DNA of 46,817 nt from Oscillospiraceae bacterium (GTDB lineage Bacteria; Bacillota; Clostridia; Oscillospirales; Acutalibacteraceae): positions 1 through 46,817 of the forward strand of contig JAISWM010000113.1 of NCBI GenBank assembly GCA_031270785.1. Reading direction: 5' to 3'. Position numbers and translations under genes: made by a program. The notes beneath the pieces are model-generated. The model was not told where the DNA came from, did no database searches, and was given only the letters and a program-made list of their open reading frames with translations. Shown here one piece after another: positions 7,500-42,274 of this stretch. Every line of letters starts with the position of its first letter. Position 1 is the stretch's first letter.

Positions 7500-8732
7500 A
7501 TGAAACGTTCTTCAATTAAAAAAACTTTTTTATGGGTAATATTTATTTTGATATTTTTTTATTCTTTACATATTATTTATAAAAAAATTTATATAAACGT
7601 ATCTACTGAAACAATAACGCAAGTAACTATAGATGACGTTGTTGATTGTAAGTCTATAATTATTAGAAATGAAGATATAATATCAAGCGAAAATCAAATT
7701 TTTTTAAAATACTTTGTAGATAACGGCGAAAGGATATCAAAGGGGGATATTGTCGCTAAATGTTTTGATAGCCAAGAAGAAGCGATGTATAGCGCGGAAC
7801 TCAGCGATATAAAGAATGAACTTGAAACTATTCAAAAAGTCAGCTTAAATGATAATTTCGGCAGAGATTTAAGTTCTATAAGTAAAGACATAAATAACGA
7901 AATTAGAAATATTTTTTTAAAATGCGAGTACCTTGACATATATAAAAACAGAAAAAAAATAACAAACCTCTTGAATGAAAGGCAAAACGCGCTGGGAAAC
8001 GGAAATATATTTTCTAAGAGAGTGGAATATTTAAAATCCAGAAAATCAGAACTTGAAAAAATGATAAATTCTCAAACCCCAAATATATATTCTCCGTATG
8101 CGGGTTATTTTGTAAGCAAAACAGACGGATATGAAAAAACCGTAAATTATGAAGACATTAAAAAATTTGATTATAATGATATGATTTATGAAAATATTAT
8201 AAAAAATAAAGCGGATGAAAAAAACGCTATAGGTAAAATAATAAAATCTACCAAGTGGTATGTGCTTTGCTATGTTTCTGCCGGTGAAATATGTAATATA
8301 CAAGAAGGTATGGAGGTTAGCGCAAAATTTGCGTGCGAAAACGATTACATACCGGCTAAAGTTGAAAGAATAGTTAAAAATGAAGATGAAAATGATAGTT
8401 TAGTCATACTTTCCTGCGAATATATGAATAATAGATTATGTTTTACACGGCTTGAAAATATTTCCGTTAAAAAAACGTCTTATTCCGGTTTTAAAATTCC
8501 TAAAGAAGCTTTGCGATTTTACGAAGACAGTGGAGCCGCATATAAAGGAATATACGTAAAAAATGGTGCTAACTTGATCTTTAAAAAGATAAATATTTTA
8601 TATTCCGAGAATAATTTTATTGTAGCTGAAACTTTTAAAAATAGCGGCGGTAACGATGAAAAACCTTTAGCAAATGGCGATCTGGTGGTAGTTAACGGCA
8701 AAAATCTCTATGATGGGAAATGTGTGTTATAG
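7500..8732 (+). CDS. HlyD-like / membrane-fusion-like protein (N-terminal TM anchor, coiled coil)
   Basis: 410 aa. It has an N-terminal hydrophobic helix, a lipoyl-like segment GERISKGDIVAKCFD, a central coiled-coil-like region and a C-terminal beta-rich part. Family assignment is by pattern only. Confidence 0.45.
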   Translation: MKRSSIKKTFLWVIFILIFFYSLHIIYKKIYINVSTETITQVTIDDVVDCKSIIIRNEDIISSENQIFLKYFVDNGERISKGDIVAKCFDSQEEAMYSAELSDIKNELETIQKVSLNDNFGRDLSSISKDINNEIRNIFLKCEYLDIYKNRKKITNLLNERQNALGNGNIFSKRVEYLKSRKSELEKMINSQTPNIYSPYAGYFVSKTDGYEKTVNYEDIKKFDYNDMIYENIIKNKADEKNAIGKIIKSTKWYVLCYVSAGEICNIQEGMEVSAKFACENDYIPAKVERIVKNEDENDSLVILSCEYMNNRLCFTRLENISVKKTSYSGFKIPKEALRFYEDSGAAYKGIYVKNGANLIFKKINILYSENNFIVAETFKNSGGNDEKPLANGDLVVVNGKNLYDGKCVL

Positions 8733-18000: not shown

Positions 18001-21000
18001 TTACTTATTCTTACCGGATTTTCATACGTTATAAGCCCTGTTTCTTGGTCTTTTTCAACGCTCAGGTTTTTAGTTACTCCTATTAAAGTAACAGTTGCTT
18101 GGGATTTTCCGCCTACAGTATTTACTTTAACTTCAACATCCGCGCCGCCGACGGTTACTTTTAAATCAGACAGCGTAAACCCTTCATTGGCCTCAGCTAA
18201 AAATGAATAGTCAGAGCCGTGGTTTACTACGCCTTTTAACGTATCAGCGCTTTCAGACGGCAGTTTAATGTCGGAGCCATCCGTTTCACGAAATGTCACT
18301 TTGTTTTCCGTAAGGTCATCTTCCGCTGATAAAGTTATATCATACTTATTTATTTCTATCCCGTATATATTGATGATAGTATCCTTTGGTGTGGTTATAG
18401 TGTAATATCCGTCGTCGCCTTTATCCAGGTCGGTCGGAGTTAATGAGCTCGAAACTTTTAAAGGCGAATTAGTGTAGCCTTCTTTAAGTTCTATTTTGAA
18501 TTTTAGTTCTTTGTTGTAATAAGTTTGGGTTCCGTTTGTAATGTCTCTGTCCGCAGGATATGCATATATGTTTGCGTTAGTTATCCTTTTGCTTTCCTCG
18601 TTTTGGAATGTTACCGAGTAAAGGTTGATTGTTATTCCGCTTACGCTTATGTCTGAGTTATCCGTAATATTAGAAAGTGACACTGCGAACAGAGTATCCG
18701 TTGAAGTTTTATCGTCTTTAATAATGGCGGCGTTAGTTGCGGAAACAAGCGCGGAGCTTAAGTTATACCCCGTATTGGATTCGACTTGAAATGAATATTC
18801 ACCGCCGTGTTCTACTGATATTTTGTTTTCAACTATTTTAGGGTCCGTTATTTCAGCGCCGCTTTGGTAAGTGAATGTATAGCCTGTTATAACTGCATCG
18901 TTTTGGTCTGTTATGGATACGGTTTCGCCGATAATTGTTACTTTGTAATCTGTTATTTCGGTGCCGCTTTGGTCTGTTAATTTATAATTGGTTATTTCAG
19001 CGCCGCTTTGGTCTATTAATTTATAGTTTAGTATTTTTGCACCGCTTGCATTCCTAAATGTTATTCTGTGGTCCTCATTAAATATTATGTTGTATTTATT
19101 TACCGCAATATCGCTTATTGTAATTTTGAAGGTTTTGGTTACATTTAACTTATAAAATCCGTTCTCAACGTTTATTATTTCATCTTCTGACGCTGAGCCA
19201 TCGCTGTTTTTATCATAATATACTTTGATAATTGATTGAGTGTACGCATCGTCTAAAATGACTTTAAAGTTTAAATCTTCCCCGTGAGCCAAACGTACTC
19301 CTGAGGTTATATTTTTATTGTTTTCATTATATACTTTAAATCTTTGAGTACTGCTATTTTTATCTACAAATTCCACACGATAAAGTACTGATTTTACGCC
19401 TTCCACGTAGACCACAGTGTCATTTGTAACGCCGCCGATATTATATACCCATTGATTTGTTTTTGAAGTGTCTCTCGTAATAATTCCGTTACTTATGTAA
19501 ACTCTTAAATTTTCATCCAAGCTGTAACCGTTATCAGTAAGAGCGGTAATTTCTATTTGGTATATGTGCGCGTTTGAATTATTGCTCACGTCATTTAGGG
19601 TGTGTTCTATCGTTGGCGCGCTTACATCCGTGGGGAATTCCTGACTGTCGCCGTCCCACTCGGATATTACTTTATTATCATTTCTAAATGATATTCCTTC
19701 TCCGCTGAAGCCTATACTATATTTATTTACTTCAATACCTTCAACAATGATAGTAATCTGTTTTCCTGCGATGAGATTTCCGGGCAGCGTCCAGTATTCA
19801 TTTTGGCAGGCTAAATTTACCGGCTGCTCTTGACCGGGGTTTGCAATTTTAGCCTTAAGGGATATGGTACTTCGATTAAATTTATCATCCAAAGAAATTT
19901 TAAATTTATAATTATATCCGTGAATTGCGGTGCCGCACAGCTCAGCCGCGTCGCCGTCGCTTTTTAGTATATTACCGCTTTCTTCGCAGATTGACAGTAC
20001 CTTACTCAGAGCAATTTCTTCAATATCTTGGTTCTCGTCCCCTGACTTTACGCCGCCATGCTTGAAAATGATTTGGTATTCATTTCGCTTTGCACCTGAA
20101 ACCATAATTATTAAATTTTCTTTTACGGAATTTACGTTATACAAATTGTATGTACTGTTAGACTCTTTAAGAGTTAACATTAAACCCGTATTTGTTACTA
20201 CGTTTATGTTGCTCAAGTTATAACCGGGTTCAGGGTAAAGCCTAAATGAATAAGGCTTTCCGTGGGCTACTTTTTGTTCATCGGTAATTATTGATTCTTG
20301 GGCATTATCTTCTTTGAAAACAACAGATTGCCCTTCAAATTCCACAGAGTACCTTTTGGGGCCTAAAGCGTTCATTATAATTTTACTGTCCCCGGTTATT
20401 TTAGGGGTAGTATAAATATAATATTCTTTGTCTACAGATTCGGTTATTTTACTGAATTTTCCATTTTCATTTGCGTAATCTGCACTAGCAGGCCCAATAT
20501 ATACCTCAGCACCGGATATTTCAAATCCGTACTTTGCTTTTAAGGCAAATGAGTAAGTCTGCCCGTGAACAATGGTGAAGTCATTGTCCGTGTTCAGCAA
20601 GCCGTTTTTACCGCTATCATAAATTTCAAAACTTTTTAATGTTTCAGCGGATTGTTTCAAACTTAAGGAATACTTGTTCAGGCTTATATTATTAACTGAA
20701 ACTGAATTATTATCATAGATTTGTACTTGATATTTGTGTATTTCATCGCTCGAAAGATCTAATATTCTTCCTTGGCTTGGATTGCTAAACGAAATATTTA
20801 TCTCGGATTTATTGTATTTGGCGTTAAGTTCTATTTCAAAGGTAAATTGTTCACCGTATTTTAACAGTTTTTCTGCGGACGTAATGTCTTGATAGGCGTT
20901 TGGGGTTGTTTCTATCTGAACCCCTGCAGCTATGGTAACTGTTTTATTACCGGCGTCAAGGGCGTCTTCACCTAACACTATATTATATCCGACGTTTGGT

Positions 21001-24000
21001 GAAGGGTCTATTGTTATATTTCCATTTATTTTATTAAATTTAACAATTGCTTTGCAAGATGAAATGCTATATGAATCGTCAATATTCTTTTTGATGGTAC
21101 CATTTATTTCAACGGATGAAATGTCGCTGTTTGATATAGTATAATTGCCTGAATCCGTCGTAATGGTAGGAGGATTAATAATATTAAAATCGCCGGCCTG
21201 GGCAGTTGCTGTAAAAGCTGAAGTATCCGACGTGTTTTCGGGCAGTTCTGCGAAAGGTATACTAATTTCATTAGCAGATTCAAGTTTAATATTAGTAATT
21301 TTTTGCAATATTTTAAATTTTTGTTCGTTATTTGAATCTATGTCTTGTTGAAAAGAGAGTGCATATTGGTTTAACTGTATGTCTGCGTTTACGGTTACCT
21401 CTTCTTGTACATTTCTTATTTCGTATTGCCCCAGAGCTTGGTTGATGGTCACTATTTTGGATGATGTCTGAGCGCCTTTGCCGTCATTTCGGGAAATTGT
21501 AAAAGTAGCGCTTTTTATATCGTATCCCGAATCAACTGCGATATGAAATGCGAATGAACCTTCGTGTTTTATTGTTACTCCGTTGCCGCCTAATTCTGAG
21601 CCCGTGGCAGTATCATAGAATGCGGCGTGATTGGACGCAAACATCACGTCGTAGTTGTTTTCTTCGATATCCGATATAGTTACCGTCGTATCGGCTTGCA
21701 CGTCGCTTAATGTAAATACAATAGCGTTTTGGGGAAGCGGTTTGTTCGCCACTTTTGCTACAGGAGAGGATTGGCTGTATTTTCCAATCGGGGTAACTTT
21801 AAAGACCAGTGTTCCCCCTTGAATTACCGGCGTGGAAATGGAAGTTATGTTTACGCTGTCGGCCTCTATTTTTACCGCTTCAGTAATAATTATATTTTTA
21901 TCTTCCGTTTTAAATTGAACTAAACAGGCGTCTGCCTTTATTTTTTCCACTTTAATTACGGTGTTATCTTTAGTGACTCTCAGTTTATATACGTCTTCAA
22001 CGGGAGTTAAGTCTTGTAAGTCGGTTATTAACCCTGATTTTACCAATATTTTTTGCTTGGATGTGTTGTTTACCGCAAACTTGAACTCAGTGTTGTTGAT
22101 AACCAGTACGTAGCCTTGCCTATTACCTTGCTCATCTGGCTCCCCCTGCTGAATTTCTTGCCATATGGGTTCCCCTTCGCCGTCCACCTGTTCCCCTTCA
22201 AAGCCGCTTATACCTTCAAAAGTGATTTCATCATCAGGGGACATAAAATAAACTTTGCACAATGATTTCGTGGGGGCGAGATTATCGGTTAAGGTAAGCT
22301 CAACGTCGCCGGTAAAATCATATATTATTGTTTTATAGTTAATAATCTTGTCGTTTGACATCATGCAGGTGTTTTGTATTTTCGCTACTTCCGGCAAACT
22401 TTCAGGATTATTGGCAATAGTTAAAATGTTAAACAAGCGTACGCCTTCGGCATCAGTTTCAACCGGAAAACAATATCCGTCCGCAGCTTCTAATACCAAT
22501 GAAAAAGCTTCTTGAGTAAACACTATGCCCGACAATATTTCCCCATTTAAAGCGTTTTTGAATATTAGCCCATCTTTATTTGGTAGCGTGATTTTATAGC
22601 TTGCGGATTCAAAATTGTCAATACTGATTATCGTTACCTGACTTTTTTTTGCGGTTTTATAAAATTTTTGAATATTAGTATTGACAAATTCTGAATTTGG
22701 TTGCAGCTGCATGTTTAAATCATTGGGTACCGTTACGATGACATTTTCAATTGACAGCGTTCCTTTTTGCTCTATTGAAAATTGGTATTGAGTGTCCGGG
22801 TCAGTTATATTTATGCCCCACTGCGCACTGCTAGGATATACCGCCCAATCTTCACTATCAGTACTTGATCCTGAACCCGTATATTTAATGGTTACCGTAT
22901 CTTGCAAATTGCTCAGCTGTTTTGACCTGAAATACAAGTAATTGTCAGTTGAAGAAGACTTTAAAATTTCGCAGTCTTCCTTTACGTTTGACAGTTTAAA
23001 TACGTCCCCCGGAAGGCTTTTAAACATGCTTTTCATGTTTTGTTTTTCTATTGCCATATCTCCCGACAGCAATTCAAGGCTTAAACCGGAAAGGAGGTCT
23101 TTGCCGTCTTCACCTTTTTTCGATGTTATTAATATATATTTATGATCGGCACTGTCTTCTTTATCGAATTCAAGGGAATCTATATTTCCGGAAGTATTTT
23201 CGTCGCTGATATTTAAAATTTTTAAAGCGCCGTAGTCTACGTTCAAACCGGTAAAAGTTAAATCCGCTTGGCATGACTCAATTTCGTAGTAGTTGTTATT
23301 ATCTTCATTTCTCTTCATGGCGCCATGTATTCTAATAGTGCTGATATTGTTTATGCCAAACGGTTGGCTTTCTATACTTGAGCAGTAAGTGTTGCCTTGT
23401 TCTTCTGCTGTAAAGTCTAAGCTCGGGTTTTGCGTGCTTATTGAAAAAGCATTCGCTATATCATTTGGCGTATTGTATGTTAGTGAAAATGTCGGGTCTA
23501 CTGGCGACATGGGGTTAATGGTGATGTCGTTTTTTGTTTGCATTGAAACGTCTTTATTAAGTGCCGCGGTTATGCTTGGCTGGCCTGTTAACGGGTCGCC
23601 CAAGTAAGACGCGATAATTTCGGTGCTTGGAATCGTAAATGAAGTACCTCGGCCAATTTTTAATTTTAAATTTGTTGTTAAAGATATATTCGCGCCCGAG
23701 GCATTTACTGTTAATTCCTGCGCGTATAAAGTAGGGGTTCCGGTTTCTGTTTCAAAATCCTTTGCGGTCATGTACAGCGGGCTAAAAGTCAAATTCATTT
23801 GGCAGCTATTTGCGTCTATGGTGTACGTCGTCGTAGTTGTTGAACTTCCGTCGGTTTTTTCGTCTTTTTTAACTGTTCCGCTAATAGTCGCCAAAGATAT
23901 TTGATATTTTGATATTTCAAAATTTTGAACCGAATTTTCAAACGTTTCACCATGACCGGGGTGTATAGTTGAAGTTACACTTAAACTATTAGGCGTCATG

Positions 24001-26126
24001 TCTATTGATGCTAATGGTAATTCAGCGGAAAAATTTTTACTCTCAAAGTCGGTGCCTGTAACGTTTAAGAGTATAGCTTGATTTGTCGTAAACGTTACGT
24101 CGATAGTATTAGTACTACCGGGTGCCACTGTTGTTTTTACCGTAGATGATGTATGGGGGATATCGCTGTCTGAGAATATTAATTTTTTTGTAAACACAGA
24201 GTTTGCGGGTAGCTCTAATTGCGATATATTATTTTTTTCGATTTTAGCATGATTTACGCTACTATTTGAATTTCCTATAGGTATATTTATTTGCTTGCTT
24301 TCTTCGAAAACGCGCCTTTTGTAAGATACTGTAGTGCCTTTAAATGTAATGTCGGCTGTGCATGATTCAAGTGTACATTGGTTATCTTCATCAACGGCAA
24401 AAGTCCCTTTGATGATTATTTTTTCAATACAATTCGCCAGCTCAGTAAATGTTTGTGAGGCTATAGGGTCATAAATTACGTTGGGGTCTTCAGGTTCTTT
24501 AATTTCAAAATCCATTTTTAGGGAGTCGGTCGTGCGAAAAGTTTGACCTATGCTCTCTGAGTTAACAATATGTTGAAACTCAATTTTTTCGCTATTTATT
24601 TGAAAAGCCGGGTTAATAACAACGTCGGTCGTTAATGTTACAGAATTTGCAAACTTTCCTTCAATTTTGGGGTCTGAGGGTTGAGGATCTCCAGAAGGCT
24701 CTTCGGATTTTACTACAACATGGTTCGAACCTAGCATAAAAATTGAACCCGAAGGTATGGTAACAACAGGTTGAGTTACAACCAAATTTTGTGTGTCAAC
24801 CTGCTGCTCAGTGATTGTTTCGCCCATAAGCACAGCTGTATTAGACGGAGTGTATTCTAATTCTTGGACGTTAATATCTTCATTCCTGCCGAATATAGTT
24901 TTATAATTTTCTGATGTCTGCGCTTCACTGTTTTGTTCTATTTCCGCGATTATATTTAAAGTTATTGCGTAAGTTGCTCCCGGGGTGTTTCTGCGCAGTG
25001 ATAATCCTTTGCCATCTTCAGAGCGCACATCTACGTGCCAAACGTTTCCGTCAAACCTTGTTACATATTGATAATTTTGGTTTGAACTGTCATCGTTATC
25101 CGTAATATTTATTGCAAATTCACTGCTTTTCCAACGGTACCCATCTTGGGGATATATAGTAAAATTGAAATTGGAACCGTAATCTATCTGAATATCAGCC
25201 TGATTTTCAAACGCGTTTGCGTGAATATCTCCTATAACCGAATTTTCGGGCTTGGTTACAGTGATATTTGTTTTCCTCAGTTGTATATTTTGAAATGTTA
25301 TAGTCGTGTTAGCATTTATGCCTTCCGCTTTCCACAAATTTTCATTATCGCCCATTTCATTTATTGAAACCGCAGTTGATCCGGCACCTTTAACTACCGG
25401 AATTATTTTAAAACCTTCTTCAGCGTATTCGTCGTTTAATTCTATAGAAAACGTTAATATTCGGCCGTGAACTATTGATTGCCCGAAAGCGATTGTTACT
25501 TTTTGCAGGTCATTCATGGCTCCCGGGTCTTTGCCCACGAAAGCGCGGACTACCCCCGCGTCTTGAATATTTACGTTTTCAGCATTAAAGGTCACCACAT
25601 ACTCTGATTTTTCAATATTACTTATCCATATAACAGAGTTGGTTTTGTTTAATTTTATAGAATATATGTCGTTATTAGCCCTCAAAGGAGCATGATAATT
25701 ATATTGAGACTTATATTCCTCGTTTTCAATTTTTCCTGTATCGGCATCAACCCATTCATTTGGGATTAATCTTACTTCAATGCCGTCTTTTTTAAATTGG
25801 CCGTCAAGTGTTATTTTGAACGAGACGTAAGGTTCATCGGTAAAATTTTCCCCGATAATACTTTTGTTTGTGTTAATGTCAATTATGTCTAGCAGCTGAC
25901 TAGTATATAAATTTTTTACGTCGTCCACTTCGCTGCCATTGTCACTTCCGCCTATGCTTACGACAAAGGAGGTGTCCGGTGGTCCCTCATTTCCGGGCTC
26001 CGTTTCATTTGCAAAAAAATTAGTTATAAATTTTAAACTTACCGCAAATAAAAAAAATATTGCAACCGAAATTAAAATTATAGCGCTCCTTTTTTTAATA
26101 TTAACATTACGACTTCCTTTATTCAT
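15063..26126 (-). CDS. Giant (~3,690 aa) cell-surface repeat protein with N-terminal signal/anchor and C-terminal TM anchor
   Basis: The uninterrupted ORF runs to 26168; the ATG at 26126 (MNKGSRNVNIKKRSAIILISVAIFFLF) is preferred. At least ~18 repeats of ~85-90 aa begin (N/K)xYxVxF. The C-terminus has an S/G/N-rich stalk, a TM helix LILILVLGAIIVILVIIVI and a basic tail. No LPXTG motif. Confidence 0.85.
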   Translation of the reverse strand: MNKGSRNVNIKKRSAIILISVAIFFLFAVSLKFITNFFANETEPGNEGPPDTSFVVSIGGSDNGSEVDDVKNLYTSQLLDIIDINTNKSIIGENFTDEPYVSFKITLDGQFKKDGIEVRLIPNEWVDADTGKIENEEYKSQYNYHAPLRANNDIYSIKLNKTNSVIWISNIEKSEYVVTFNAENVNIQDAGVVRAFVGKDPGAMNDLQKVTIAFGQSIVHGRILTFSIELNDEYAEEGFKIIPVVKGAGSTAVSINEMGDNENLWKAEGINANTTITFQNIQLRKTNITVTKPENSVIGDIHANAFENQADIQIDYGSNFNFTIYPQDGYRWKSSEFAINITDNDDSSNQNYQYVTRFDGNVWHVDVRSEDGKGLSLRRNTPGATYAITLNIIAEIEQNSEAQTSENYKTIFGRNEDINVQELEYTPSNTAVLMGETITEQQVDTQNLVVTQPVVTIPSGSIFMLGSNHVVVKSEEPSGDPQPSDPKIEGKFANSVTLTTDVVINPAFQINSEKIEFQHIVNSESIGQTFRTTDSLKMDFEIKEPEDPNVIYDPIASQTFTELANCIEKIIIKGTFAVDEDNQCTLESCTADITFKGTTVSYKRRVFEESKQINIPIGNSNSSVNHAKIEKNNISQLELPANSVFTKKLIFSDSDIPHTSSTVKTTVAPGSTNTIDVTFTTNQAILLNVTGTDFESKNFSAELPLASIDMTPNSLSVTSTIHPGHGETFENSVQNFEISKYQISLATISGTVKKDEKTDGSSTTTTTYTIDANSCQMNLTFSPLYMTAKDFETETGTPTLYAQELTVNASGANISLTTNLKLKIGRGTSFTIPSTEIIASYLGDPLTGQPSITAALNKDVSMQTKNDITINPMSPVDPTFSLTYNTPNDIANAFSISTQNPSLDFTAEEQGNTYCSSIESQPFGINNISTIRIHGAMKRNEDNNNYYEIESCQADLTFTGLNVDYGALKILNISDENTSGNIDSLEFDKEDSADHKYILITSKKGEDGKDLLSGLSLELLSGDMAIEKQNMKSMFKSLPGDVFKLSNVKEDCEILKSSSTDNYLYFRSKQLSNLQDTVTIKYTGSGSSTDSEDWAVYPSSAQWGINITDPDTQYQFSIEQKGTLSIENVIVTVPNDLNMQLQPNSEFVNTNIQKFYKTAKKSQVTIISIDNFESASYKITLPNKDGLIFKNALNGEILSGIVFTQEAFSLVLEAADGYCFPVETDAEGVRLFNILTIANNPESLPEVAKIQNTCMMSNDKIINYKTIIYDFTGDVELTLTDNLAPTKSLCKVYFMSPDDEITFEGISGFEGEQVDGEGEPIWQEIQQGEPDEQGNRQGYVLVINNTEFKFAVNNTSKQKILVKSGLITDLQDLTPVEDVYKLRVTKDNTVIKVEKIKADACLVQFKTEDKNIIITEAVKIEADSVNITSISTPVIQGGTLVFKVTPIGKYSQSSPVAKVANKPLPQNAIVFTLSDVQADTTVTISDIEENNYDVMFASNHAAFYDTATGSELGGNGVTIKHEGSFAFHIAVDSGYDIKSATFTISRNDGKGAQTSSKIVTINQALGQYEIRNVQEEVTVNADIQLNQYALSFQQDIDSNNEQKFKILQKITNIKLESANEISIPFAELPENTSDTSAFTATAQAGDFNIINPPTITTDSGNYTISNSDISSVEINGTIKKNIDDSYSISSCKAIVKFNKINGNITIDPSPNVGYNIVLGEDALDAGNKTVTIAAGVQIETTPNAYQDITSAEKLLKYGEQFTFEIELNAKYNKSEINISFSNPSQGRILDLSSDEIHKYQVQIYDNNSVSVNNISLNKYSLSLKQSAETLKSFEIYDSGKNGLLNTDNDFTIVHGQTYSFALKAKYGFEISGAEVYIGPASADYANENGKFSKITESVDKEYYIYTTPKITGDSKIIMNALGPKRYSVEFEGQSVVFKEDNAQESIITDEQKVAHGKPYSFRLYPEPGYNLSNINVVTNTGLMLTLKESNSTYNLYNVNSVKENLIIMVSGAKRNEYQIIFKHGGVKSGDENQDIEEIALSKVLSICEESGNILKSDGDAAELCGTAIHGYNYKFKISLDDKFNRSTISLKAKIANPGQEQPVNLACQNEYWTLPGNLIAGKQITIIVEGIEVNKYSIGFSGEGISFRNDNKVISEWDGDSQEFPTDVSAPTIEHTLNDVSNNSNAHIYQIEITALTDNGYSLDENLRVYISNGIITRDTSKTNQWVYNIGGVTNDTVVYVEGVKSVLYRVEFVDKNSSTQRFKVYNENNKNITSGVRLAHGEDLNFKVILDDAYTQSIIKVYYDKNSDGSASEDEIINVENGFYKLNVTKTFKITISDIAVNKYNIIFNEDHRITFRNASGAKILNYKLIDQSGAEITNYKLTDQSGTEITDYKVTIIGETVSITDQNDAVITGYTFTYQSGAEITDPKIVENKISVEHGGEYSFQVESNTGYNLSSALVSATNAAIIKDDKTSTDTLFAVSLSNITDNSDISVSGITINLYSVTFQNEESKRITNANIYAYPADRDITNGTQTYYNKELKFKIELKEGYTNSPLKVSSSLTPTDLDKGDDGYYTITTPKDTIINIYGIEINKYDITLSAEDDLTENKVTFRETDGSDIKLPSESADTLKGVVNHGSDYSFLAEANEGFTLSDLKVTVGGADVEVKVNTVGGKSQATVTLIGVTKNLSVEKDQETGLITYENPVRISNAKKEKYTVTFGGQEMNNVTILDKDTLKDITRSGREVLYGGDLTIIASPNTGYDQSVSGWTFVAGTAIEKESTNTWKIKNVTSDTIVTLQGLQLNTYTMTFKGDDVEFKDKVTGNDISSQNLSITHGRYFTFKVTPKEGYDLENVTISTTAGRLTEENRSAKEAVYTLSEIDSPPTVEVKVLKSNINVKLVENEGIIYREPFGSSVLIGIQTRPYGDTFSFSVATEYGYDFKTLEVKAEGTVLIPSSINEEEEYYRYEIPSVKEDTDITATVNKKKYKIELPTSESTEGLKFYENNRQITHETNIIVEYGGKFQFTTELDDRHNQSSVTVKANDETVNFINGYYTIADVSANMAITVEGIEINRYKVNLSESIGATYEDASVEMSNISGVYIIQYGSEISFSISPKGGYELSQMVVVCREDNGVAISLEPKDGRYTIKNVASNKTVSVQNAKEVQYKVSFEPTYGVRYKNDQGLVVTNPVYVNHGNNFEFQVSIYDECDDSVPVVKTTSGTVGVQKLSAGKYILSNVTEDLTIQVLNVSKNKYTVTLTKITGITYKDASGKTLENEAQKVEYNDDFKFHVYVQPAYNDSAITVMLGKDNIATENGVYIIRGIKEDKTVTVTGITENEETLLINTIDKLSDKVESSADVDAIVQATKRYNQLSDDKKALISNYSKLQSLQQLAGEYSHVTNDLKVSGVPWNIKLVAVTLSANTDACSRIYNKLNSEFILSLYDIYLVDMLTGQKYELPEGEKVIVTIPTPDLKYFKDPLVVHEISSTGKIEYLILNINGDTSSFEMTSFSSAGVIAKKSLNSGNSSLFNAIGDEINNIKDIIANMVNGGGHGQSSNMSNTSGSSSASGSGNDSNDSWDDSVQSDKSDEIFEESTDVTSNSENSSSGGSSSGSNNSGGTGSNNKNNGFIGQFVQDGSGVMQGSAIKLILILVLGAIIVILVIIVIKRLRPKNKNSKTASGKTEPKVPPKNE

Positions 26127-26188
26127 AATTGCACCGCCCTTATTGATATAAATGACAATTTTTGTCACTGCATTTATTTTTATTTGGT

Positions 26189-29526: not shown

Positions 29527-30426
29527 TCACTGACCGTATGCAACGAGTCTCTTCTTCATTTCCTCTGACTCGTTGTTAATTTCATCATAGGCCTCCTCTG
29601 ATTCGCCAAACTTTTTAGTTAATTCGCCACAAAGATTCTTTATTTTTTGTAACTTATTTCCTTCTCGATTCATTGTAACAGCGATCAATTTGGCCCCTTT
29701 CCTAAATTCAATTAAGGTTGCTAGTCCGCCATCACTATATTCATCTGGCAGCCCGGAATTCCATCCTGCACATTCTCCTCTTATCTCGTTAGTGATACCT
29801 TTTAATAATATATTACATTTTCCTTCTTCTCCATTTCCTGCCAATTTAATAGCTTTCTTGATCTCGTTAGCGTACACGGCAAATTTTGCCCCCATTTGCG
29901 CAATTCTCATCAAAATACTAGATTTTATAAGATATGTCGCAATTTTCAGTTCCAATTTTCTCTTTTCGTTTTTATTTATTTTGGGTGACGACATAATTTT
30001 TTGTAATCTAAGAATGTTTTCATCACAATATTTTTGAAGAATAATAATAACCATCATGTAAAAACATCTTTCTGCAATATTTTTAGGATTAATACCAGCA
30101 AAACCTACACAGCACGCTTTAAGGGCACATAATACAGCCAAAGTAACCCCTTTTTTCTTTATAAGCTTTTCATCTACCTCTGGACCCTCCCATTTAATGC
30201 AATTTGCGGTAATCTTGAGGTTTTCCAATTTTTTCACCTTTCTATTAATATTCCATTCTTCAAATTGTTTTTCTAGTTTTTGCAATGCTTGTTTGGGGTT
30301 CATTGCTAAAATAGATTTCAAGAATTTCTTATTCTCATTTTTGAATCCATTTACCCGGTCACTTTTTCCTTTACAAAGTTTTTTAAGTTCTTCATCAATA
30401 CTTTCTTTGCTAACTTTACTAGCCAT
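29527..30426 (-). CDS. Hypothetical protein (~299 aa, K/E-rich, several Cys), no recognised domain
   Basis: The ORF runs to 30462. The ATG at 30426 (MASKVSKE) lies 10 nt after GGAGG. No motif recognised. Confidence 0.6.
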   Translation of the reverse strand: MASKVSKESIDEELKKLCKGKSDRVNGFKNENKKFLKSILAMNPKQALQKLEKQFEEWNINRKVKKLENLKITANCIKWEGPEVDEKLIKKKGVTLAVLCALKACCVGFAGINPKNIAERCFYMMVIIILQKYCDENILRLQKIMSSPKINKNEKRKLELKIATYLIKSSILMRIAQMGAKFAVYANEIKKAIKLAGNGEEGKCNILLKGITNEIRGECAGWNSGLPDEYSDGGLATLIEFRKGAKLIAVTMNREGNKLQKIKNLCGELTKKFGESEEAYDEINNESEEMKKRLVAYGQ

Positions 30427-30578
30427 AACCTTTCTACCTCCTTCAAATTTATCTACCAACATATTACCACACGGATATAAAAAAGCAACACTTTAAATAA
30501 AATATTTTCCAAAGTAAGCAACAAAAACATATAAACGCACTAAAAAAGCGAATATAAAAAAATCTAAATTTCAGCAAC

Positions 30579-30639
30579 TATCGCCCCGCCGATAGGCGGG
30601 GGGGAAAAGAAGAAATTTCAACTATTTTGAGATATGGCC
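30579..30639 (+). mobile_element. MITE family B, hairpin plus right arm only
   Basis: ATCGCCCCGCCGATAGGCGGGGGGAAAAGAAGAAATTTCAACTATTTTGAGATATGGCC. The flank TTCAACGTTTG is shared with the copy ending at 26463. Confidence 0.7.
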
Positions 30640-30665
30640 TTCAACGTTTGCCGCCAACTCCCATT

Positions 30666-30727
30666 ACTTGTAAAAAAAGTAAACTTTTTCATGCGCTATC
30701 TTTCCGCCAACGCAGGGGGAGAAAAAA
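30666..30727 (+). repeat. Family E-like fragment
   Basis: ACTTGTAAAAAAAGTAAACTTTTTCATGCGCTATCTTTCCGCCAACGCAGGGGGAGAAAAAA. Confidence 0.55.
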
Positions 30728-30758
30728 TCAAGACCACCTCTTTTAGGGGTGGTCTTGA
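30721..30758 (-). terminator. Rho-independent terminator of the AAA+ gene
   Basis: An 11-bp stem TCAAGACCACC (30728-30738) pairs with GGTGGTCTTGA (30748-30758), followed on the minus strand by TTTTTTC. Confidence 0.75.
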
Positions 30759-30806
30759 CCTTACCTTATGGTTATGGCTTATACTATTTATAGTTTTAAA
30801 ACAGGC

Positions 30807-33089
30807 TTATCGTAATTTTGCTGCCGCTTTTTCAATGTCAGACCTGTAAAGTGTTATATCAACACGCCTTTTGGTTTCGCTCATATTCAAACGTTCTTGA
30901 ACTGCAATCTCAACGCTTCTGGTAATTTCAGCTCCGGTTTTGTTTCTGAACACAGTTGCAAGAGATTCTACGAATTCATCCAACACAAAGCTTTCTTCAA
31001 GTTTATATCCGGCGAGGCACACTTTCAAAATTTTTCTCGTATCGAATTCGGTTGGCGTAGACATTTCAATCTTGCGCTCAAAGCGACCGGGACGTCTTGC
31101 GGCAGAATCAACGCTATCCAAAACATTTGTTGTGGCTACAAGTATGACTCCGCTGCGTGGGTCAAAATTATCAACACTTGCTAAGAACGCAGGAGTATCG
31201 CTTGCTTGACCCGGTGTACGAACAGGAGCAAGGGCATCTAATTCATCAAACACAACATATGTCGGCGCTCCGGTTGAACGGCTGAGTTCTTCACCACGAT
31301 TAATCGCGTCTTGAACTGCTTTTCTCATGGCATCGTTATCCGGTTGGCGACGTACCATAACGCATTCTCTATTCAGTGATGCAGCAATGGCTTGCACTGA
31401 GGTTGTTTTTCCAACACCCGGGACACCGTAAATTAAGATTCCCTTAGCCGGATTCCCGGTTTGGGTGTTCATTACTTCTTGCCTTTCAGCGTCTATATCC
31501 ATGAATTCACTTTTCAAAGAATCATAACCGCCTACGACGTCGTCCAAATCAAGTTCGCCGTTTCTTAGCAATTCAAGTTGTTTTTGAAAATCGTGACGCG
31601 CGGTCAATTCTTCTTCTTTTTTCATTTTTGCGGTAAATCTTTCAACAATAGCTTTTTTTCTGTCAATGCTTCGATCGGTTTTTGACAAAAACAAGTTTAA
31701 TTTTTGCTCAAACTTTACTTTTTCCGGTAAACTTGCCATGCTGGACAAGTCCGAAGCGAGTTGATCGTGTTCAGACAAAAGATCAGCTTTCATCCCATTT
31801 ATAATTTGCACATCTTTTTCGTCCATTTCACGAATTTCAAATGCCTCGTGAATTTTACATCTCAATCCATAAAGCTGAGAATCATAAGCATCCCTTGAAG
31901 AATTTACCAAATTGATTTCAAAATCTTTTTGTGCATTTGCAATCTCCGCAATTAAACCATCACAATGTTTGCAGTGCTGATCTATGTTCAATTTTGCGCT
32001 TTTAAGATAGTTCTTCACGTTTTGCACAAAAATTTCTTTGTCATCCTCTCTTATATGATCGCTTAAATTCATGTCAACGATAGCAGACTCAAGTTCCCGA
32101 GCTTGCTGTGCAGCGAGTTGAACAACATCTCCAAAATTTTCACTAACGTCTTTCGATTTTTCCAAACAGAATCTTAATTCCCTCAATTTGTTTTCTAAAG
32201 GTTGAACTAAAGCTTCTTTTTGGGCTTGAAAATAACCGTCTTGCTGTGAGATAATTAATTTTTTGCTTGCTTCTTCCAGCTCACGTTTCCTTTTATTTTC
32301 TTCTTCTTTGGCACATTTTATTTTTTCTGCCTCAATTTCTTTTCCCAAAGCCGAGTTTAAATCATCGCATAAACCAGACACACGTTCTATTGCTTTTTTC
32401 GTTTCAGAGAAATGCTCGTCAACATTTTTTACAAACTCTCCCCAATTGAGTTCCGGATCATACCCGCTAAACACATCACTATTCACATCGTTTGCGATTT
32501 TTTCTGACTGTACTTTAATTAAATTTATTTCTGTCTTATATCTGTCGGCATATCCCACCTCACTCACAAAGGCTTTCAATTCATCAATTCTACTGCGTAA
32601 ATTTTTAAACAAACGTTCTTTGAATGTCGAAACATATTCATGTTGCTTTGCGGTATATTGCAGTTCCTCCTCATGTGCCAATTCGTTTCTTCTTTTCACA
32701 GCCTGGATTTGGCGTTGAATGCCGGCGATTGCCAAATCTGCGGCATCGATAACGTCTTTCGCGTCGCGGAAGTTGAAGCGATCAAACATATGGTTACTGC
32801 CACTTAATTTAGCGTAAAGCTCACTTGCGCGTTGTCCGACCAACTCTGCCGCACCTTCGTCATAGTTCCTAAGTTCTGTAATCTTCTTTTCTAAGTCACT
32901 GATTCTTTCCGTCGCTTCGCTGCGAATAGCTTTAACCTCCTCGGCGGAATACAAGTGGAAAAATCCTGGATTTTCGTACGCTGCCACCGCTGGCATAAAC
33001 ACTGTGCCCAATGATGTCAAAACCAAAAGTGAAGCGATTTTGGCATTAAAACTTGACCTTTTGCTAACAATTAACTTTTTCACAAACAA
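30807..33089 (-). CDS. Classical-clade AAA+ ATPase with N-terminal signal/anchor peptide and ~500-aa coiled-coil region
   Basis: 760 aa. Walker A GVPGVGKTT, Walker B VVFDELDAL, second region of homology ATTNVLDSVDSAARRPGRFERKIEM. N-terminus is MFVKKLIVSKRSSFNAKIASLLVLTSLGTVFMPAVAAYE. A TTG start follows GGAG. Confidence 0.85.
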   Translation of the reverse strand: MFVKKLIVSKRSSFNAKIASLLVLTSLGTVFMPAVAAYENPGFFHLYSAEEVKAIRSEATERISDLEKKITELRNYDEGAAELVGQRASELYAKLSGSNHMFDRFNFRDAKDVIDAADLAIAGIQRQIQAVKRRNELAHEEELQYTAKQHEYVSTFKERLFKNLRSRIDELKAFVSEVGYADRYKTEINLIKVQSEKIANDVNSDVFSGYDPELNWGEFVKNVDEHFSETKKAIERVSGLCDDLNSALGKEIEAEKIKCAKEEENKRKRELEEASKKLIISQQDGYFQAQKEALVQPLENKLRELRFCLEKSKDVSENFGDVVQLAAQQARELESAIVDMNLSDHIREDDKEIFVQNVKNYLKSAKLNIDQHCKHCDGLIAEIANAQKDFEINLVNSSRDAYDSQLYGLRCKIHEAFEIREMDEKDVQIINGMKADLLSEHDQLASDLSSMASLPEKVKFEQKLNLFLSKTDRSIDRKKAIVERFTAKMKKEEELTARHDFQKQLELLRNGELDLDDVVGGYDSLKSEFMDIDAERQEVMNTQTGNPAKGILIYGVPGVGKTTSVQAIAASLNRECVMVRRQPDNDAMRKAVQDAINRGEELSRSTGAPTYVVFDELDALAPVRTPGQASDTPAFLASVDNFDPRSGVILVATTNVLDSVDSAARRPGRFERKIEMSTPTEFDTRKILKVCLAGYKLEESFVLDEFVESLATVFRNKTGAEITRSVEIAVQERLNMSETKRRVDITLYRSDIEKAAAKLR

Positions 33090-33141
33090 TTTTCTCCTTT
33101 ATTAAAATATGATAATTAAATTGTAAAAGTGCTACAATTAA

Positions 33142-33170
33142 ATTATAACTCAAACCAATTACAAAGTCAA
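33142..33170 (-). promoter_or_regulatory. Promoter of the AAA+ gene
   Basis: On the minus strand: TTGACT (33170-33165), a 17-nt spacer, then TATAAT (33147-33142). Confidence 0.6.
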
Positions 33171-33254
33171 GCATAAAAAAATATTTTTTTGAAATTTAAT
33201 TTGAATTAAGTTTAATTCCTCGAGGCTTGTCTCGTATATATAGCCAAAATCATT

Positions 33255-33371
33255 TATAGCTGTTTCGTTTGAAAAGCGTCTGATTTTTATAACTTTTTCT
33301 TAGCCGACGGCGGGGAGAAAGTACACGGATAAATTTACTTTCGAGGACTGTTTTAAATCGTAACAGCTATA
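33255..33371 (+). mobile_element. MITE family A copy
   Basis: TATAGCTGTTTCGTTTGAAAAGCG...CGTAACAGCTATA. Confidence 0.9.
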
Positions 33372-33458
33372 GAAACATGGTATCATTTGCGGTTTTCCCC
33401 GCCGACTCGCGGGGGGAAAGCGTAAATAATACCACGTTTTTAAATGATTTTTGTTATA
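33372..33458. repeat. Family D-type palindromic module (D left arm on both sides of the hairpin)
   Basis: ATGGTATCATTTGCGG, then TTTTCCCCGCCGACTCGCGGGGGGAAAG, then CGTAAATAATACCACGTTTTTAAATGATTTTTGTTATA. Confidence 0.65.
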
Positions 33459-33482
33459 ATGAAGTGAAAATGCCAAAGTGTG

Positions 33483-33583
33483 TATAGCTGCTGCGCTTAA
33501 AAAACGTCTAATTTTTTATCGTACTCTCCCCCCCGCCGGTGGCGGGGTAAAAGAAGAAATTTTAACTATTTTGAGACATAATC
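33483..33583 (+). repeat. Chimeric element: E-like left arm joined to B right arm at the hairpin
   Basis: TATAGCTGCTGCGCTTAAAAAACGTCTAATTTTTTATCGTACTCTCCCCCCCGCCGGTGGCGGGGTAAAAGAAGAAATTTTAACTATTTTGAGACATAATC. Confidence 0.7.
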
Positions 33584-33604
33584 AGTTTTTGAAGTATTTT
33601 TAAT

Positions 33605-33747
33605 AGACCTGTCCGTAAATCTCACAGAGCGCAGACTATCGAAAAATGCATCACTTAAAAAATGGCTTTGCATCAAAATCTCCTTGGAGTATCTTCATAC
33701 GCCGTCGTCGATTTTGATTGCAATCTGTAAAATTTACGGACAGGTCT
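33605..33747 (+). mobile_element. MITE family C, intact 143-bp copy
   Basis: 16-17 bp inverted termini AGACCTGTCCGTAAATC...AATTTACGGACAGGTCT, flanked by AAT on both sides. Confidence 0.88.
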
Positions 33748-33782
33748 AATCTAAATTTGGTTTATTAAAATCGAAAAATTCA

Positions 33783-33994: not shown

Positions 33995-34669
33995 ATGGGA
34001 TTAACAAAAAATAGAATTATAATAGCAGCGGCAATAACATTAGCAACAGCGGTAGCAGCAATAACAATTATAAAGCTTAAAAACACAAGCACATTAACGC
34101 CATCACCAAATGGCAGGGCTGCAAAGGGTAAAAGTCCCAAACTAACGCACGTTGCAAATCTCGATGCGACGCCCGCTACAAATGTTGCAAACCCCGATGC
34201 GACGCCCGCTACAAATGTTGCGAACCCCGCTATATCGCACGTTGTAACTGCAAAATGTTTCAACAATGCACAAGATTGTTTAAAATTTTGCCTCCTAACC
34301 AATGGAGAAAAAGTCGTTTTAAAAAACCTTCCAAAATTAGGGGCTGGTTATGAAATTCGTAACGACTATAGGCGCCTTGAACGTGATGAATATGGATTGT
34401 ATAGTTATGGCGGCGATTCTTGGGCATTGCATTATTATCCTAGCGAAAATTCACAACAAAATCGTCATTTTCGTGCATATGATGATGACGATTCTCTTTA
34501 CAATAACGATTTTGATAATGGATTGCAGCAAGCAGCAATTTTATACAAGAATGATAATTATGCGGACTTAGACTATGACGATCACTTCACTACGGCGGGT
34601 ATTCTTAAATATGTGGATTGGTGTGCCCAAAACAATAAAAAAATATGTGTTTTTATCCCCTATCTTTGA
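33995..34669 (+). CDS. Hypothetical membrane-anchored protein with an 11-aa tandem repeat linker
   Basis: 224 aa. It has an N-terminal TM helix IIIAAAITLATAVAAITII and a VAN(L/P)DATPATN repeat encoded by 33-bp units at 34151-34232. The C-terminal domain is rich in Y/D/N and contains several Cys. GGAG lies 10 nt upstream. Confidence 0.65.
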   Translation: MGLTKNRIIIAAAITLATAVAAITIIKLKNTSTLTPSPNGRAAKGKSPKLTHVANLDATPATNVANPDATPATNVANPAISHVVTAKCFNNAQDCLKFCLLTNGEKVVLKNLPKLGAGYEIRNDYRRLERDEYGLYSYGGDSWALHYYPSENSQQNRHFRAYDDDDSLYNNDFDNGLQQAAILYKNDNYADLDYDDHFTTAGILKYVDWCAQNNKKICVFIPYL

Positions 34670-41368: not shown

Positions 41369-42274
41369 TCATTGTGCACTGTGTGCACTGACGATAACGG
41401 CTTCAATTAAATTAAGTAAATCATTTATATTATTTACATTCCCAGCATGTGCGGCTTCAAGTGCGGCTTCAAATGCGTCTGCATGTGCTTTGCATTGTGT
41501 GGGGCTACGTTCATTCATTATTATAAACCAATATGCGTATGACGCTGACCATATTTTACTATGCGGTTGGGTTACCGCAGTTACATATGCAGTCGCATAT
41601 ACGTGTGCACTATTAGTCACATTGTATGCCCTATCAGCCGCATCGTCTGCACTATCAGTCGCATCGTGTGCACTATCAATCGCAAGTACATGCTTCATTA
41701 TGGGTACATACACTTCTGCATATAAGCTTGATTCCAGACGACTATGTCCCGCTGTTTTCCTGTCTGCATATACAATTGCAATTTCGTCTGCCATCTTTGG
41801 AAACAGCCCTTCAAATATCATTTGTTCATATTTGTATGCATAGGCATAGGCTTCAGTATTTCCGCTTGCTTCCACAACCTCATACGTGTTAGCAAACATG
41901 ATTGCTCTTGCAACAGGAAATCCTAATGCTATCAAGTCTGCAAATATCTCTGCCAACAAAGGGTTTTTCCCATTTGCTATTGCCTCCCCATATATGCGTT
42001 GATATGTTTCTGCATAGTTGTTCGCAATGTCTGTTGCCTCCGCTTCCGTTTTCCCTCTCATCATTGCGGTCATGAATACGTCTGTATAGATTTCCGCATC
42101 TTTTCGGCTAGCTCCTGCGCGTTCCCTGTCATAACATACAAGCTGCCATTGAGGAATACATCTAAAAACACTATCTCTGAGATCAGTATCTCCAAGTGCT
42201 GAAACTCCAAAAATGGACAAACTACTAAACAATACGGCACAACTAATAAAAACTTTTGACTTATTCTTTTTCAT
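41369..42274 (-). CDS. Hypothetical secreted protein, Ala/Tyr-rich helical repeats
   Basis: 301 aa. Signal peptide is MKKNKSKVFISCAVLFSSLSIFGVSALG. Loose A-x-x-Y-A type repeats occur (NYAETYQRIYGEA, AYAYAYKYEQ, AHVYATAYVTA). AGGAG lies 7 nt upstream. G+C-richer than its neighbours. Confidence 0.65.
   Translation of the reverse strand: MKKNKSKVFISCAVLFSSLSIFGVSALGDTDLRDSVFRCIPQWQLVCYDRERAGASRKDAEIYTDVFMTAMMRGKTEAEATDIANNYAETYQRIYGEAIANGKNPLLAEIFADLIALGFPVARAIMFANTYEVVEASGNTEAYAYAYKYEQMIFEGLFPKMADEIAIVYADRKTAGHSRLESSLYAEVYVPIMKHVLAIDSAHDATDSADDAADRAYNVTNSAHVYATAYVTAVTQPHSKIWSASYAYWFIIMNERSPTQCKAHADAFEAALEAAHAGNVNNINDLLNLIEAVIVSAHSAQ

Follow-up and report, generated by a model that had tools for sequence, protein, structure and literature searches.

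A clostridial AAA ATPase with a predicted Sec signal peptide as a candidate host-directed effector in a reduced-genome lineage

Introduction

The window analysed here is the whole 46,817-nucleotide stretch of contig JAISWM010000113.1 (GenBank assembly GCA_031270785.1, Oscillospiraceae bacterium, family Acutalibacteraceae in GTDB). It carries on its reverse strand, at 30807..33089, a gene for an AAA ATPase that, judging from its sequence, is probably exported through the Sec pathway and works in a host compartment, which would make it a candidate host-directed effector. The family to which the protein belongs has about 20 members and is a new, lineage-restricted family of AAA proteins, most likely secreted. 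To our knowledge, hardly any AAA ATPase is known to act outside the cytoplasm in bacteria, and ATP is normally absent outside the cell. A first-pass annotation of the window had noticed that a Sec-type N-terminus, a long helical part and an AAA module stand together in one open reading frame, an observation that is confirmed here, and it had offered three explanations: an effector delivered into another cell, an unusual membrane topology, or a mis-assigned start. The first is now the best supported and the last is rejected, while an unusual topology still has one homolog in its favour.

If export is confirmed, the family would consist of bacterial AAA+ effectors found only in a lineage of clostridial energy parasites that was recognised recently and that has relatives in gut metagenomes from humans and ruminants (PMC10579323). 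The family would then also be relevant to how proteins secreted by Sec only, including Rab-like GTPases that need host prenylation, act on or reach the host cytosol. More generally, a signal peptide on an enzyme of cytosolic type can flag an intracellular lifestyle.

A conserved export-type N-terminus

The coding sequence (30807..33089, −; stop codon at 30807-30809) gives 760 aa from a TTG codon at 33089 or 758 aa from a GTG codon at 33083, and residues are numbered throughout on the latter product, P0001. The protein begins with MKKLIVSKRSSFNAKIASLLVLTSLGTVFMPAVAA, followed by YENPGFF. Its first 35 residues (32979..33083, −), which contain five Lys or Arg and no Asp or Glu and end in AVAA, are predicted from these sequence features to be a Sec signal peptide, with the five basic residues in the n-region, IASLLVLTSLGTVF as the h-region and PAVAA as the c-region (Val at −3, Ala at −1). 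The h-region is the single hydrophobic segment of the protein, with a Kyte-Doolittle 19-residue maximum of 1.97, and the remainder of the chain peaks at 1.04. Immediately afterwards comes YENPGFFHLYS (aa 36-46; 32946..32978, −), the predicted mature N-terminus, an aromatic motif that is conserved in the family alignment with the consensus AYxxxxxFHxYSxxEV and that occurs once in the six-frame translation of the genome.

The same pattern runs through the family. The features of a type I Sec signal peptide, i.e., a basic n-region, a hydrophobic h-region of 7-15 or more residues and small residues at −3 and −1, are recognizable in the protein under study and in 18/18 full-length members of an alignment, A3, and this upholds the Sec-type N-terminus that the first-pass annotation had proposed. 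Three to five Lys or Arg lie within the 12 residues before the hydrophobic segment in all 18, the exception being the second segment of the homolog L178, which is discussed below. The segments are short, with 19-residue Kyte-Doolittle maxima of 0.96-2.16 that stay below 1.6 in 11 of the 18. A small-residue −3/−1 site, judged by eye from the printed sequences, stands directly before the aromatic motif in every aligned member; one subfamily has this motif as AYENPGFFHLYS and the other as FW..SHSQEE. The N-terminal sequence diverges while its pattern persists, which is the mode in which signal peptides evolve.

That the protein begins downstream of the hydrophobic segment, its start having been mis-assigned, or that the gene is decaying, we consider extremely improbable. 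Met30 does fall within the segment, one relative (L180, from genome G848) is truncated to its AAA part with a stop codon inside the match, and 94-248 pseudogenes are reported per genome of the clostridial small genome clade introduced below (PMC10579323). Nevertheless, a Shine-Dalgarno site, AAAGGAG (33094..33100, −; read from the sequence), lies 4 nt 5' of TTG 33089 and 10 nt 5' of GTG 33083, and nothing resembling such a site is found upstream of Met30. The frame is intact, and the gene has the promoter and terminator of its own that had been attributed to it together with the Shine-Dalgarno site. The sigma-70-type promoter, TTGACT-17-TATAAT (33142..33170, −), is a consensus match only; it agrees at 11/12 positions and is the top site in 30300-33700, a region with 11 promoter-like sites against 8.1 ± 2.7 in shuffles. 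The intrinsic terminator (30722..30758, −) is formed by 14-nt arms at 30728-30741 and 30745-30758 that are 93% complementary, with a T-run at 30722-30727; its hairpin has a folding free energy of −24.5 kcal/mol (z −4.65), and an equally good fold appeared in 0/200 shuffles. Moreover, the N-terminal pattern and the catalytic residues are kept in 18 members at 18-63% identity, and conservation at such distances indicates purifying selection. Homologs were checked for a missing hydrophobic N-terminus or a start downstream of it, and neither was found among the full-length members.

The topology of the protein deserves a closer discussion, because the segment might also serve as an uncleaved anchor. 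Its insertion could be N-out/C-in or take the form of a re-entrant hairpin. The AAA ring and the helical arms would then work at the cytoplasmic side of the membrane, with a possible role in division, membrane remodelling or spore formation, in loose analogy to coiled-coil anchors of EzrA type or to the topology of FtsH. We think that such a cytoplasm-facing anchor is unlikely, even if it has reasonable arguments in its favour. It is general knowledge that AAA ATPases with full catalytic residues are normally cytoplasmic, and the aromatic residues right after the segment (YENPGFFHLY in one subfamily, FW..SHSQEE in the other) resemble an interfacial aromatic belt. However, the positive-inside rule predicts the opposite orientation in 17/18 members, with 3-5 Lys or Arg ahead of the hydrophobic segment and neutral or acidic residues behind it, and the length and hydrophobicity of the segments are low for transmembrane helices. 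AxA-type sites are conserved as well. Finally, a core function in division or at the membrane would not be expected of a gene that is confined to small genomes with an ATP/ADP translocase and whose distribution is patchy even among genomes of one genus.

Five metagenomic relatives (P0018, P0019, P0024, P0025 and P0026) provide a further argument, since they carry an extra 45-110 aa before the signal-like segment, and the passage of such an extension through the membrane would require a separate signal, which makes the N-out orientation unlikely. These extensions follow the pattern ...LYxICK...LTPEEFEKFL...EEQLEKIAGGK, with a Met within 1-2 residues after it in three of the five. Four of them finish in a double-glycine motif, IAGG[KR] or VAGGK, and that of P0018 finishes in VAGSK. 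Scans of the extensions against families of double-glycine bacteriocins gave sub-threshold matches only, to PF10439 (E 0.05-0.06) in 2/5 and to NF038167 (E 0.013-0.07) in 2/5. Leaders that end in a double glycine are recognised by C39 peptidase ABC exporters, but the protein of our window has no such leader itself. As a side observation, an HlyD_2 secretion adaptor is encoded in the window at 7500-8732 (+) and a 717-aa Peptidase_C39 ABC exporter elsewhere in the same genome, here called G000 (G000:C71:2224-2613, locus L182), so a route for double-glycine export exists in the organism.

The homolog L178 (G1103:C80, L178:6638-8512, −) is the one that speaks for an unusual topology. It has a 40-residue insertion with a second strongly hydrophobic segment, TIVASGLALALPALGAGLFWW (Kyte-Doolittle 1.85), and the order along its chain is the signal-like segment, about 20 residues, TIVASGLALALPALGAGLFWW, SNKK and then the conserved HSQEE motif. 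Two segments followed by SNKK would give an N-in/C-in or type I topology, and the helical region and the AAA domain of L178 are accordingly predicted to be inside the bacterium, which counts in favour of the cytoplasm-facing anchor and against export. The sister protein of L178, from genome G996 (L179), has one hydrophobic segment only, and the insertion would thus give L178 the reverse of the topology predicted for this sister. As this sister is single-segment and the G848 copy is truncated, the gene may be in flux in the genus of L178. An in-frame miniature inverted-repeat transposable element (MITE) was considered as the origin of the insertion, but no palindrome was evident in the sequence.

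Even if the orientation is that of an exported protein, the signal might not be cut. The arms and the AAA ring would then be retained by an uncleaved signal anchor on the bacterial surface, facing the host vacuole or cytosol and using ATP there. This possibility, which seems to us rather improbable, shares all the topology evidence given above for export; the aromatic motif could sit at the outer membrane interface, and the h-region of the protein is among the more hydrophobic ones of the family. Cleavage is nonetheless favoured over retention as a signal anchor, because of the −3/−1 small-residue site read by eye before the motif in every member and because most h-regions lack the length or the hydrophobicity that a stable anchor would need.

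An organism that appears to import ATP

The premise of the first-pass annotation that no ATP is available outside the membrane does not hold for this organism. The assembly of genome G000, which carries the gene, measures 1.25 Mb and is 92% complete. Its closest MurA relatives are found in metagenome-assembled genomes (MAGs) of Oscillospirales/Acutalibacteraceae at 57-69% identity. Placement in the Oscillospirales implies a monoderm envelope, and a Sec signal therefore means the outside of the cell. The genome encodes a full-length TLC ATP/ADP translocase (G000:C7:1588-3036, +, locus L181), which matches PF03219 with E 1.9e-139 over profile positions 5-491 of 491; TLC translocases are present in 0/14 control genomes. 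Conversely, enolase has no match in this 92%-complete genome, whereas 14/14 controls have one.

Besides the translocase, the genome is rich in nucleotide-dependent proteins of eukaryotic kind, with 34 Ras-family matches and 5 protein-kinase matches. Two Ras-like genes lie directly downstream of the translocase (C7:3707-4165 and C7:4896-5399), and further examples are found at C62:6184-6669, C15:11379-11885 and C12:221-715. Among the best 27 of the 34 Ras-like matches, the 7 weakest having been dropped, 26 Ras/Rab-like GTPases were flagged with an N-terminal signal peptide, one of the near-identical pair MKFKKFIALICTFAFMFSNLINVSA and MNFLKKSFAIVFASVFSLCTGFSVSGA, placed a few residues before the P-loop; in the 27th, the open frame extends further upstream and the same signal peptide comes after this extension. 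The C-terminus is CSC, CAC or CC in six of the 27, and we take these to be Rab geranylgeranylation (prenylation) motifs, usable only by a eukaryotic host; several others end in a hydrophobic segment that resembles a tail anchor. Four of the 5 kinases were examined: two are of eukaryote type with a signal peptide, one is cut by the contig end and one, of 663 aa, is housekeeping-like. Taken by their sequences, these proteins indicate that Sec is a routine route for GTP- and ATP-dependent enzymes in this genome.

Such a set of features has been described in the literature. Takahashi et al. (ISME J 2023) studied clostridia that live as endosymbionts in the protists of termite guts, along with 23 gut MAGs that have human and ruminants among their sources, and defined a 'small genome clade' in the Acutalibacteraceae with genomes of 0.86-1.4 Mb and 30-39% G+C, the intracellular Acutalibacteraceae being reported at 1.0-1.3 Mb (PMC10579323). 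According to the same paper, the clade has no net ATP generation and no enolase, and an ATP/ADP translocase was gained in its common ancestor. At least 20 of 42 eukaryote-like proteins carry signal peptides and are 'most probably secreted ... through the Sec system', and electron micrographs show endospores as well as symbionts enclosed by a host membrane (PMC10579323). The genome studied here has the same parasite-type features, namely a size of about 1 Mb, a low G+C content, a translocase, no enolase match and Sec-tagged eukaryote-like proteins. The organism thus looks like a clostridial energy parasite with a reduced genome, of the small-genome-clade kind that lives inside a eukaryotic cell and imports its ATP. 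With the translocase, the Sec-tagged nucleotide-dependent enzymes and the lack of an enolase match, ATP outside this bacterium is plausible, and the paradox of an external ATPase is largely explained by the apparent lifestyle of the organism, in which ATP would be present outside its membrane.

The AAA module and the helical region

The C-terminal part of the protein (aa 541-758; 30810..31463, −) is a classical-clade AAA module with a C-terminal helical lid. PF00004 (AAA) matches residues 551-677 with E 6.5e-20, and GVPGVGKTT, VVFDELDAL and RPGRFERKIEM are all present, with Walker A at G553-T560, Walker B at D613-E614, sensor-1 N653 in ATTN and the arginine fingers R664 and R667 in RRPGRFE. 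Together with the alpha/beta core and the lid, these features establish the assignment to the classical clade that the first-pass annotation had made. G553, P555, G556, G558, K559, T560, D613, E614, N653, R664 and R667 are invariant in 18/18 members.

The pore-loop-1 position (aa 578-588, RRQPDNDAMRK, then AVQ; 31320..31352, −) is without the aromatic-hydrophobic-Gly motif. In a HMMER alignment to the second AAA domain (D2) of Afg2, K-A-V-Q of the protein stands opposite K-Y-V-G. The relatives have DMEAEIK or S-M-V-M-G-E there, and an aromatic residue occurs in 0 members. The protein thus lacks the pore-loop hallmark of a substrate-threading AAA unfoldase.

Several known identities were also considered for the protein. 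The NCBIfam models for PAN, Cdc48 and FtsH cover only its last 230-260 residues or so (from about residue 480-530), all far below their cut-offs. FtsH was rejected on account of the single hydrophobic segment, of an end at the AAA lid (aa 758), of PF01434 and PF06480 not being found, and of a TIGR01241 score of 54.4 bits against a cut-off of 600. A proteasomal ATPase of the PAN/ARC/Mpa type, in which a coiled coil and then an OB domain precede the AAA module, was rejected as well: in the best NCBIfam match, to PAN, only query residues 504-730 align, to profile positions 119-349, with 82.6 bits against a cut-off of 500, there is no OB-domain family, and the structural model is helical up to residue 540. 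The nearest relatives of the AAA domain are archaeal proteins of Cdc48/VAT type, at about 33% identity, and the sole other AAA match to the protein in its own genome is FtsH. A eukaryotic origin of the domain was considered, but no donor was identified: the plant match P0048 (199 bits) has two domains in tandem, and the closest single relatives are the archaeal Cdc48-type proteins.

Between the N-terminus and the AAA module lies a region of about 490 residues (aa 47-540; 31464..32945, −) that has no Pfam or NCBIfam family. An AlphaFold2 model from a 2-sequence alignment was poor (predicted local distance difference test, pLDDT, 50.7), and the model used is that from the 18-sequence alignment (m2fda57296522), with pLDDT 80.2, a predicted template-modelling score of 0.49 and low confidence for aa 1-38. 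It predicts helices throughout 47-540, followed by the alpha/beta AAA core and the helical lid. Over aa 46-530, the a/d positions of the heptads contain more hydrophobic residues than expected (0.364, vs 0.267 ± 0.021 in 200 shuffles). The region is thus predicted to be helical, with a heptad bias, and a true coiled coil or helical bundles would be alike possible; of the coiled coil of about 500 aa that had been proposed, the helices and the heptads stand, whereas the label itself is only partly borne out.

A search of the Atlas with aa 36-520 gave no usable match, and fold searches with the whole model gave matches confined to the AAA module. In an exhaustive HMMER search with aa 1-529, relatives of the helical region appeared only fused to the same AAA module or as fragments. 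The region contains a weak internal repeat with a unit of about 100 aa, found when aa 135-250 were compared with aa 275-385 by BLASTP (101 aligned columns, 23% identity, E 0.002): copy 1 spans aa 144-242 (32358..32654, −) and copy 2 spans aa 278-377 (31953..32252, −). Most relatives have one copy of this helical unit, which leaves a gap block in the alignment, and the duplication is clearer in P0029.

Distribution of the family

A word-indexed search gave one full-length homolog, P0002, with 63% identity, which keeps the hydrophobic N-terminus and the sequence V-x-A followed by Y-x-NPGFFH. The exhaustive HMMER search with aa 1-529 added 14 further proteins (E 3e-41 to 3e-8), with the AAA module C-terminal in every non-fragment, and genome searches contributed additional members from seven genomes.

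In one sample of 401 genomes of its own GTDB family, G000 included, the AAA family is present in 8 genomes of 5 genera, all of 0.9-1.4 Mb. The TLC translocase (PF03219) is present in 32 of these 401 genomes and in 18/185 genera, mostly in genomes of 0.9-1.8 Mb. All 8 genomes with the AAA family are within the 32 TLC-positive ones, and the family is found in 0/369 TLC-negative ones. No true member was found among 40 relatives that include two genomes of the same genus, where the matches were of FtsH type only; the AAA gene is absent from both of these other genomes of the genus, which are 84% and 96% complete. Nor was any found among 400 other genomes of the order, where two matches at 1e-35 cover the AAA part of frames of FtsH size (600-650 aa), or among 398 other scored genomes of the class (2 unscored).

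Beyond these genomes, viral contigs gave only generic AAA matches, over residues 468-758, and aa 1-529 had no tblastn match in the phage and plasmid collections. Relatives were sought with alignment A1 in genome and metagenome contigs and with P0002 in metagenome contigs, and none was found there, while the A3 profile retrieved from the word-indexed database only P0001, P0002 and generic AAA proteins.

The truncated copy mentioned above (L180:590-1582, +; G848:C8) comprises the AAA module and about 70 residues, has a TAA inside the match, lies directly after another gene and is probably a remnant, to judge from its sequence. No conserved partner gene was seen next to the members, whose neighbours differ between genera. 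Patchy presence, differing neighbours and a truncated copy fit an accessory effector gene.

Proposed mechanism and comparison with known systems

We think that the following sequence of events is the most reasonable for an exported AAA ATPase. Residues 1-35 would act as the signal peptide, and one of two type I signal peptidases, for which the genome has two Peptidase_S26 genes, would probably cut after AVAA. A protein of about 83 kDa beginning with YENPGFFHLYS would thereby be freed. Outside the bacterium ATP would be at hand, either in the host cytosol or in the vacuole that contains the symbiont, and the C-terminal module may form a p97-D1-like ring that hydrolyses it. The helical arms of about 490 residues would bind a target, perhaps a coiled-coil, membrane or cytoskeletal assembly of the host. 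Such a target may be remodelled or held by the ring rather than threaded through its pore, because pore loop 1 has no aromatic residue and because of the likeness to p97 D1.

Several points weigh against this proposal, in addition to the homolog L178. The assignment of the organism to the published clade is based on shared features and not on a tree, and the main text of the paper that defines the clade contains no mention of an AAA protein (PMC10579323). The co-occurrence with TLC is found in genomes that are kin, so it represents a lineage restriction and not an independent correlation. The AAA domain is without an identifiable eukaryotic donor, and it is thus not 'eukaryote-like' in the sense of that paper. 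Moreover, if a host membrane surrounds this bacterium, as it does the symbionts in the micrographs of that paper, Sec export alone would reach the lumen of the vacuole and not the host cytosol, a problem that the Rab-like proteins share.

This last difficulty leads to a more speculative version of export, to which we give only a small chance, as it is built by analogy. The protein could be an AAA motor secreted into the vacuole, in the manner of HSP101, where it would use host ATP and engage the vacuolar membrane by its helical arms and aromatic motif. There it might move Sec-secreted effectors, such as the Rab-like GTPases and kinases, across this membrane, or it might take apart coiled-coil machinery with which the host fuses or cuts membranes, such as SNAREs or ESCRT-III. 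Either role, if true, would provide a new route to the host cytosol for a Gram-positive bacterium without a type III, IV or VI secretion system.

The models for such a role are eukaryotic. Plasmodium HSP101, which is part of PTEX, and the torsins are AAA+ ATPases with signal peptides that work in compartments containing ATP, the parasitophorous vacuole and the lumen of the endoplasmic reticulum, respectively, and torsins are not known to have aromatic pore loops. HSP101 is of ClpB type, and both belong to AAA+ clades other than that of our protein; no homology beyond the AAA+ fold is claimed.

Among the classical AAA proteins (p97/Cdc48 D1, VAT, FtsH, PAN), the fold, the nucleotide motifs, the second region of homology with two arginines and the lid are the same as in the protein studied here. 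Pore loop 1 of p97 D1 is not known to have an aromatic residue either. Unlike those proteins, ours has a single AAA module, without an N-domain, an OB domain or an M41 protease, and bears in front of it the signal peptide and the helical region of about 490 aa that belongs to no family. FtsH and the EzrA-type anchored proteins of Firmicutes are comparable in another respect, as their chains start with a hydrophobic segment and continue into a large soluble part, with long helical repeats in EzrA and a classical AAA module in FtsH. However, FtsH crosses the membrane with two segments and carries a protease domain, EzrA is not known to have a basic n-region or an ATPase, and the charge distribution of our protein predicts the opposite orientation to that of such anchors.

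The Sec-tagged proteins of the small genome clade follow the same logic, that of a nucleotide-dependent enzyme of cytosolic type behind a Sec signal (PMC10579323). Our protein differs from them in that its AAA domain is not eukaryote-like by sequence and in that it has a signal peptide of its own and not the shared MKFKKFIALICTF... module. The Streptomyces protein SCO1434 is annotated as 'Secreted AAA ATPase', an entry that comes with no further data in the source (PMC4255298). Cytoplasmic AAA partners of PspA/Snf7 have been described too, with an architecture that differs from that of our protein (PMC11237479).

Base composition and neighbouring sequences

The AAA gene has a G+C content of 40.3%, in comparison with 36.2 ± 3.8% for the 481 genome open reading frames of at least 250 aa (87th percentile), and its G+C at third codon positions is 35.4% vs 31.4 ± 4.5% in the same set (85th percentile). 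The gene is therefore G+C-richer, as had been estimated by hand, yet it is no outlier, so the compositional anomaly does not stand and the excess is a weak pointer to a foreign origin. The description of the gene as bracketed by repeats was accurate. Both intergenic regions around it contain MITE-like inverted repeats and G+C-rich CCCCGCC...GGCGGGG hairpins (about 30570-30720 and 33300-33420), and the upstream MITE-like inverted-repeat elements lie at 33255-33371 and 33596-33756.

Three other open reading frames of the window deserve mention. The one at 15063-26168 (−) encodes 3701 aa with no Pfam family; an N-terminal hydrophobic segment is followed by a body rich in Ser, Thr, Asn and Ile, and the C-terminal part has a Gly/Ser/Asn-rich stretch, then a transmembrane segment and the basic tail KRLRPKNKNSK, so that by its sequence it looks like a giant surface protein. 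At 41369-42274 (−), a 301-aa open reading frame with a signal-peptide-like start, MKKNKSKVFISCAVLFSSLSIFGVSA, an Ala/Tyr/Glu-rich body and no Pfam family may be another secreted protein. Finally, the 224-aa open reading frame at 33995-34669 (+), divergent from the AAA gene and without a family, has an N-terminal transmembrane segment, a tandem ATPATNVANPD repeat and a C-terminal part rich in Asp, Tyr and Asn.

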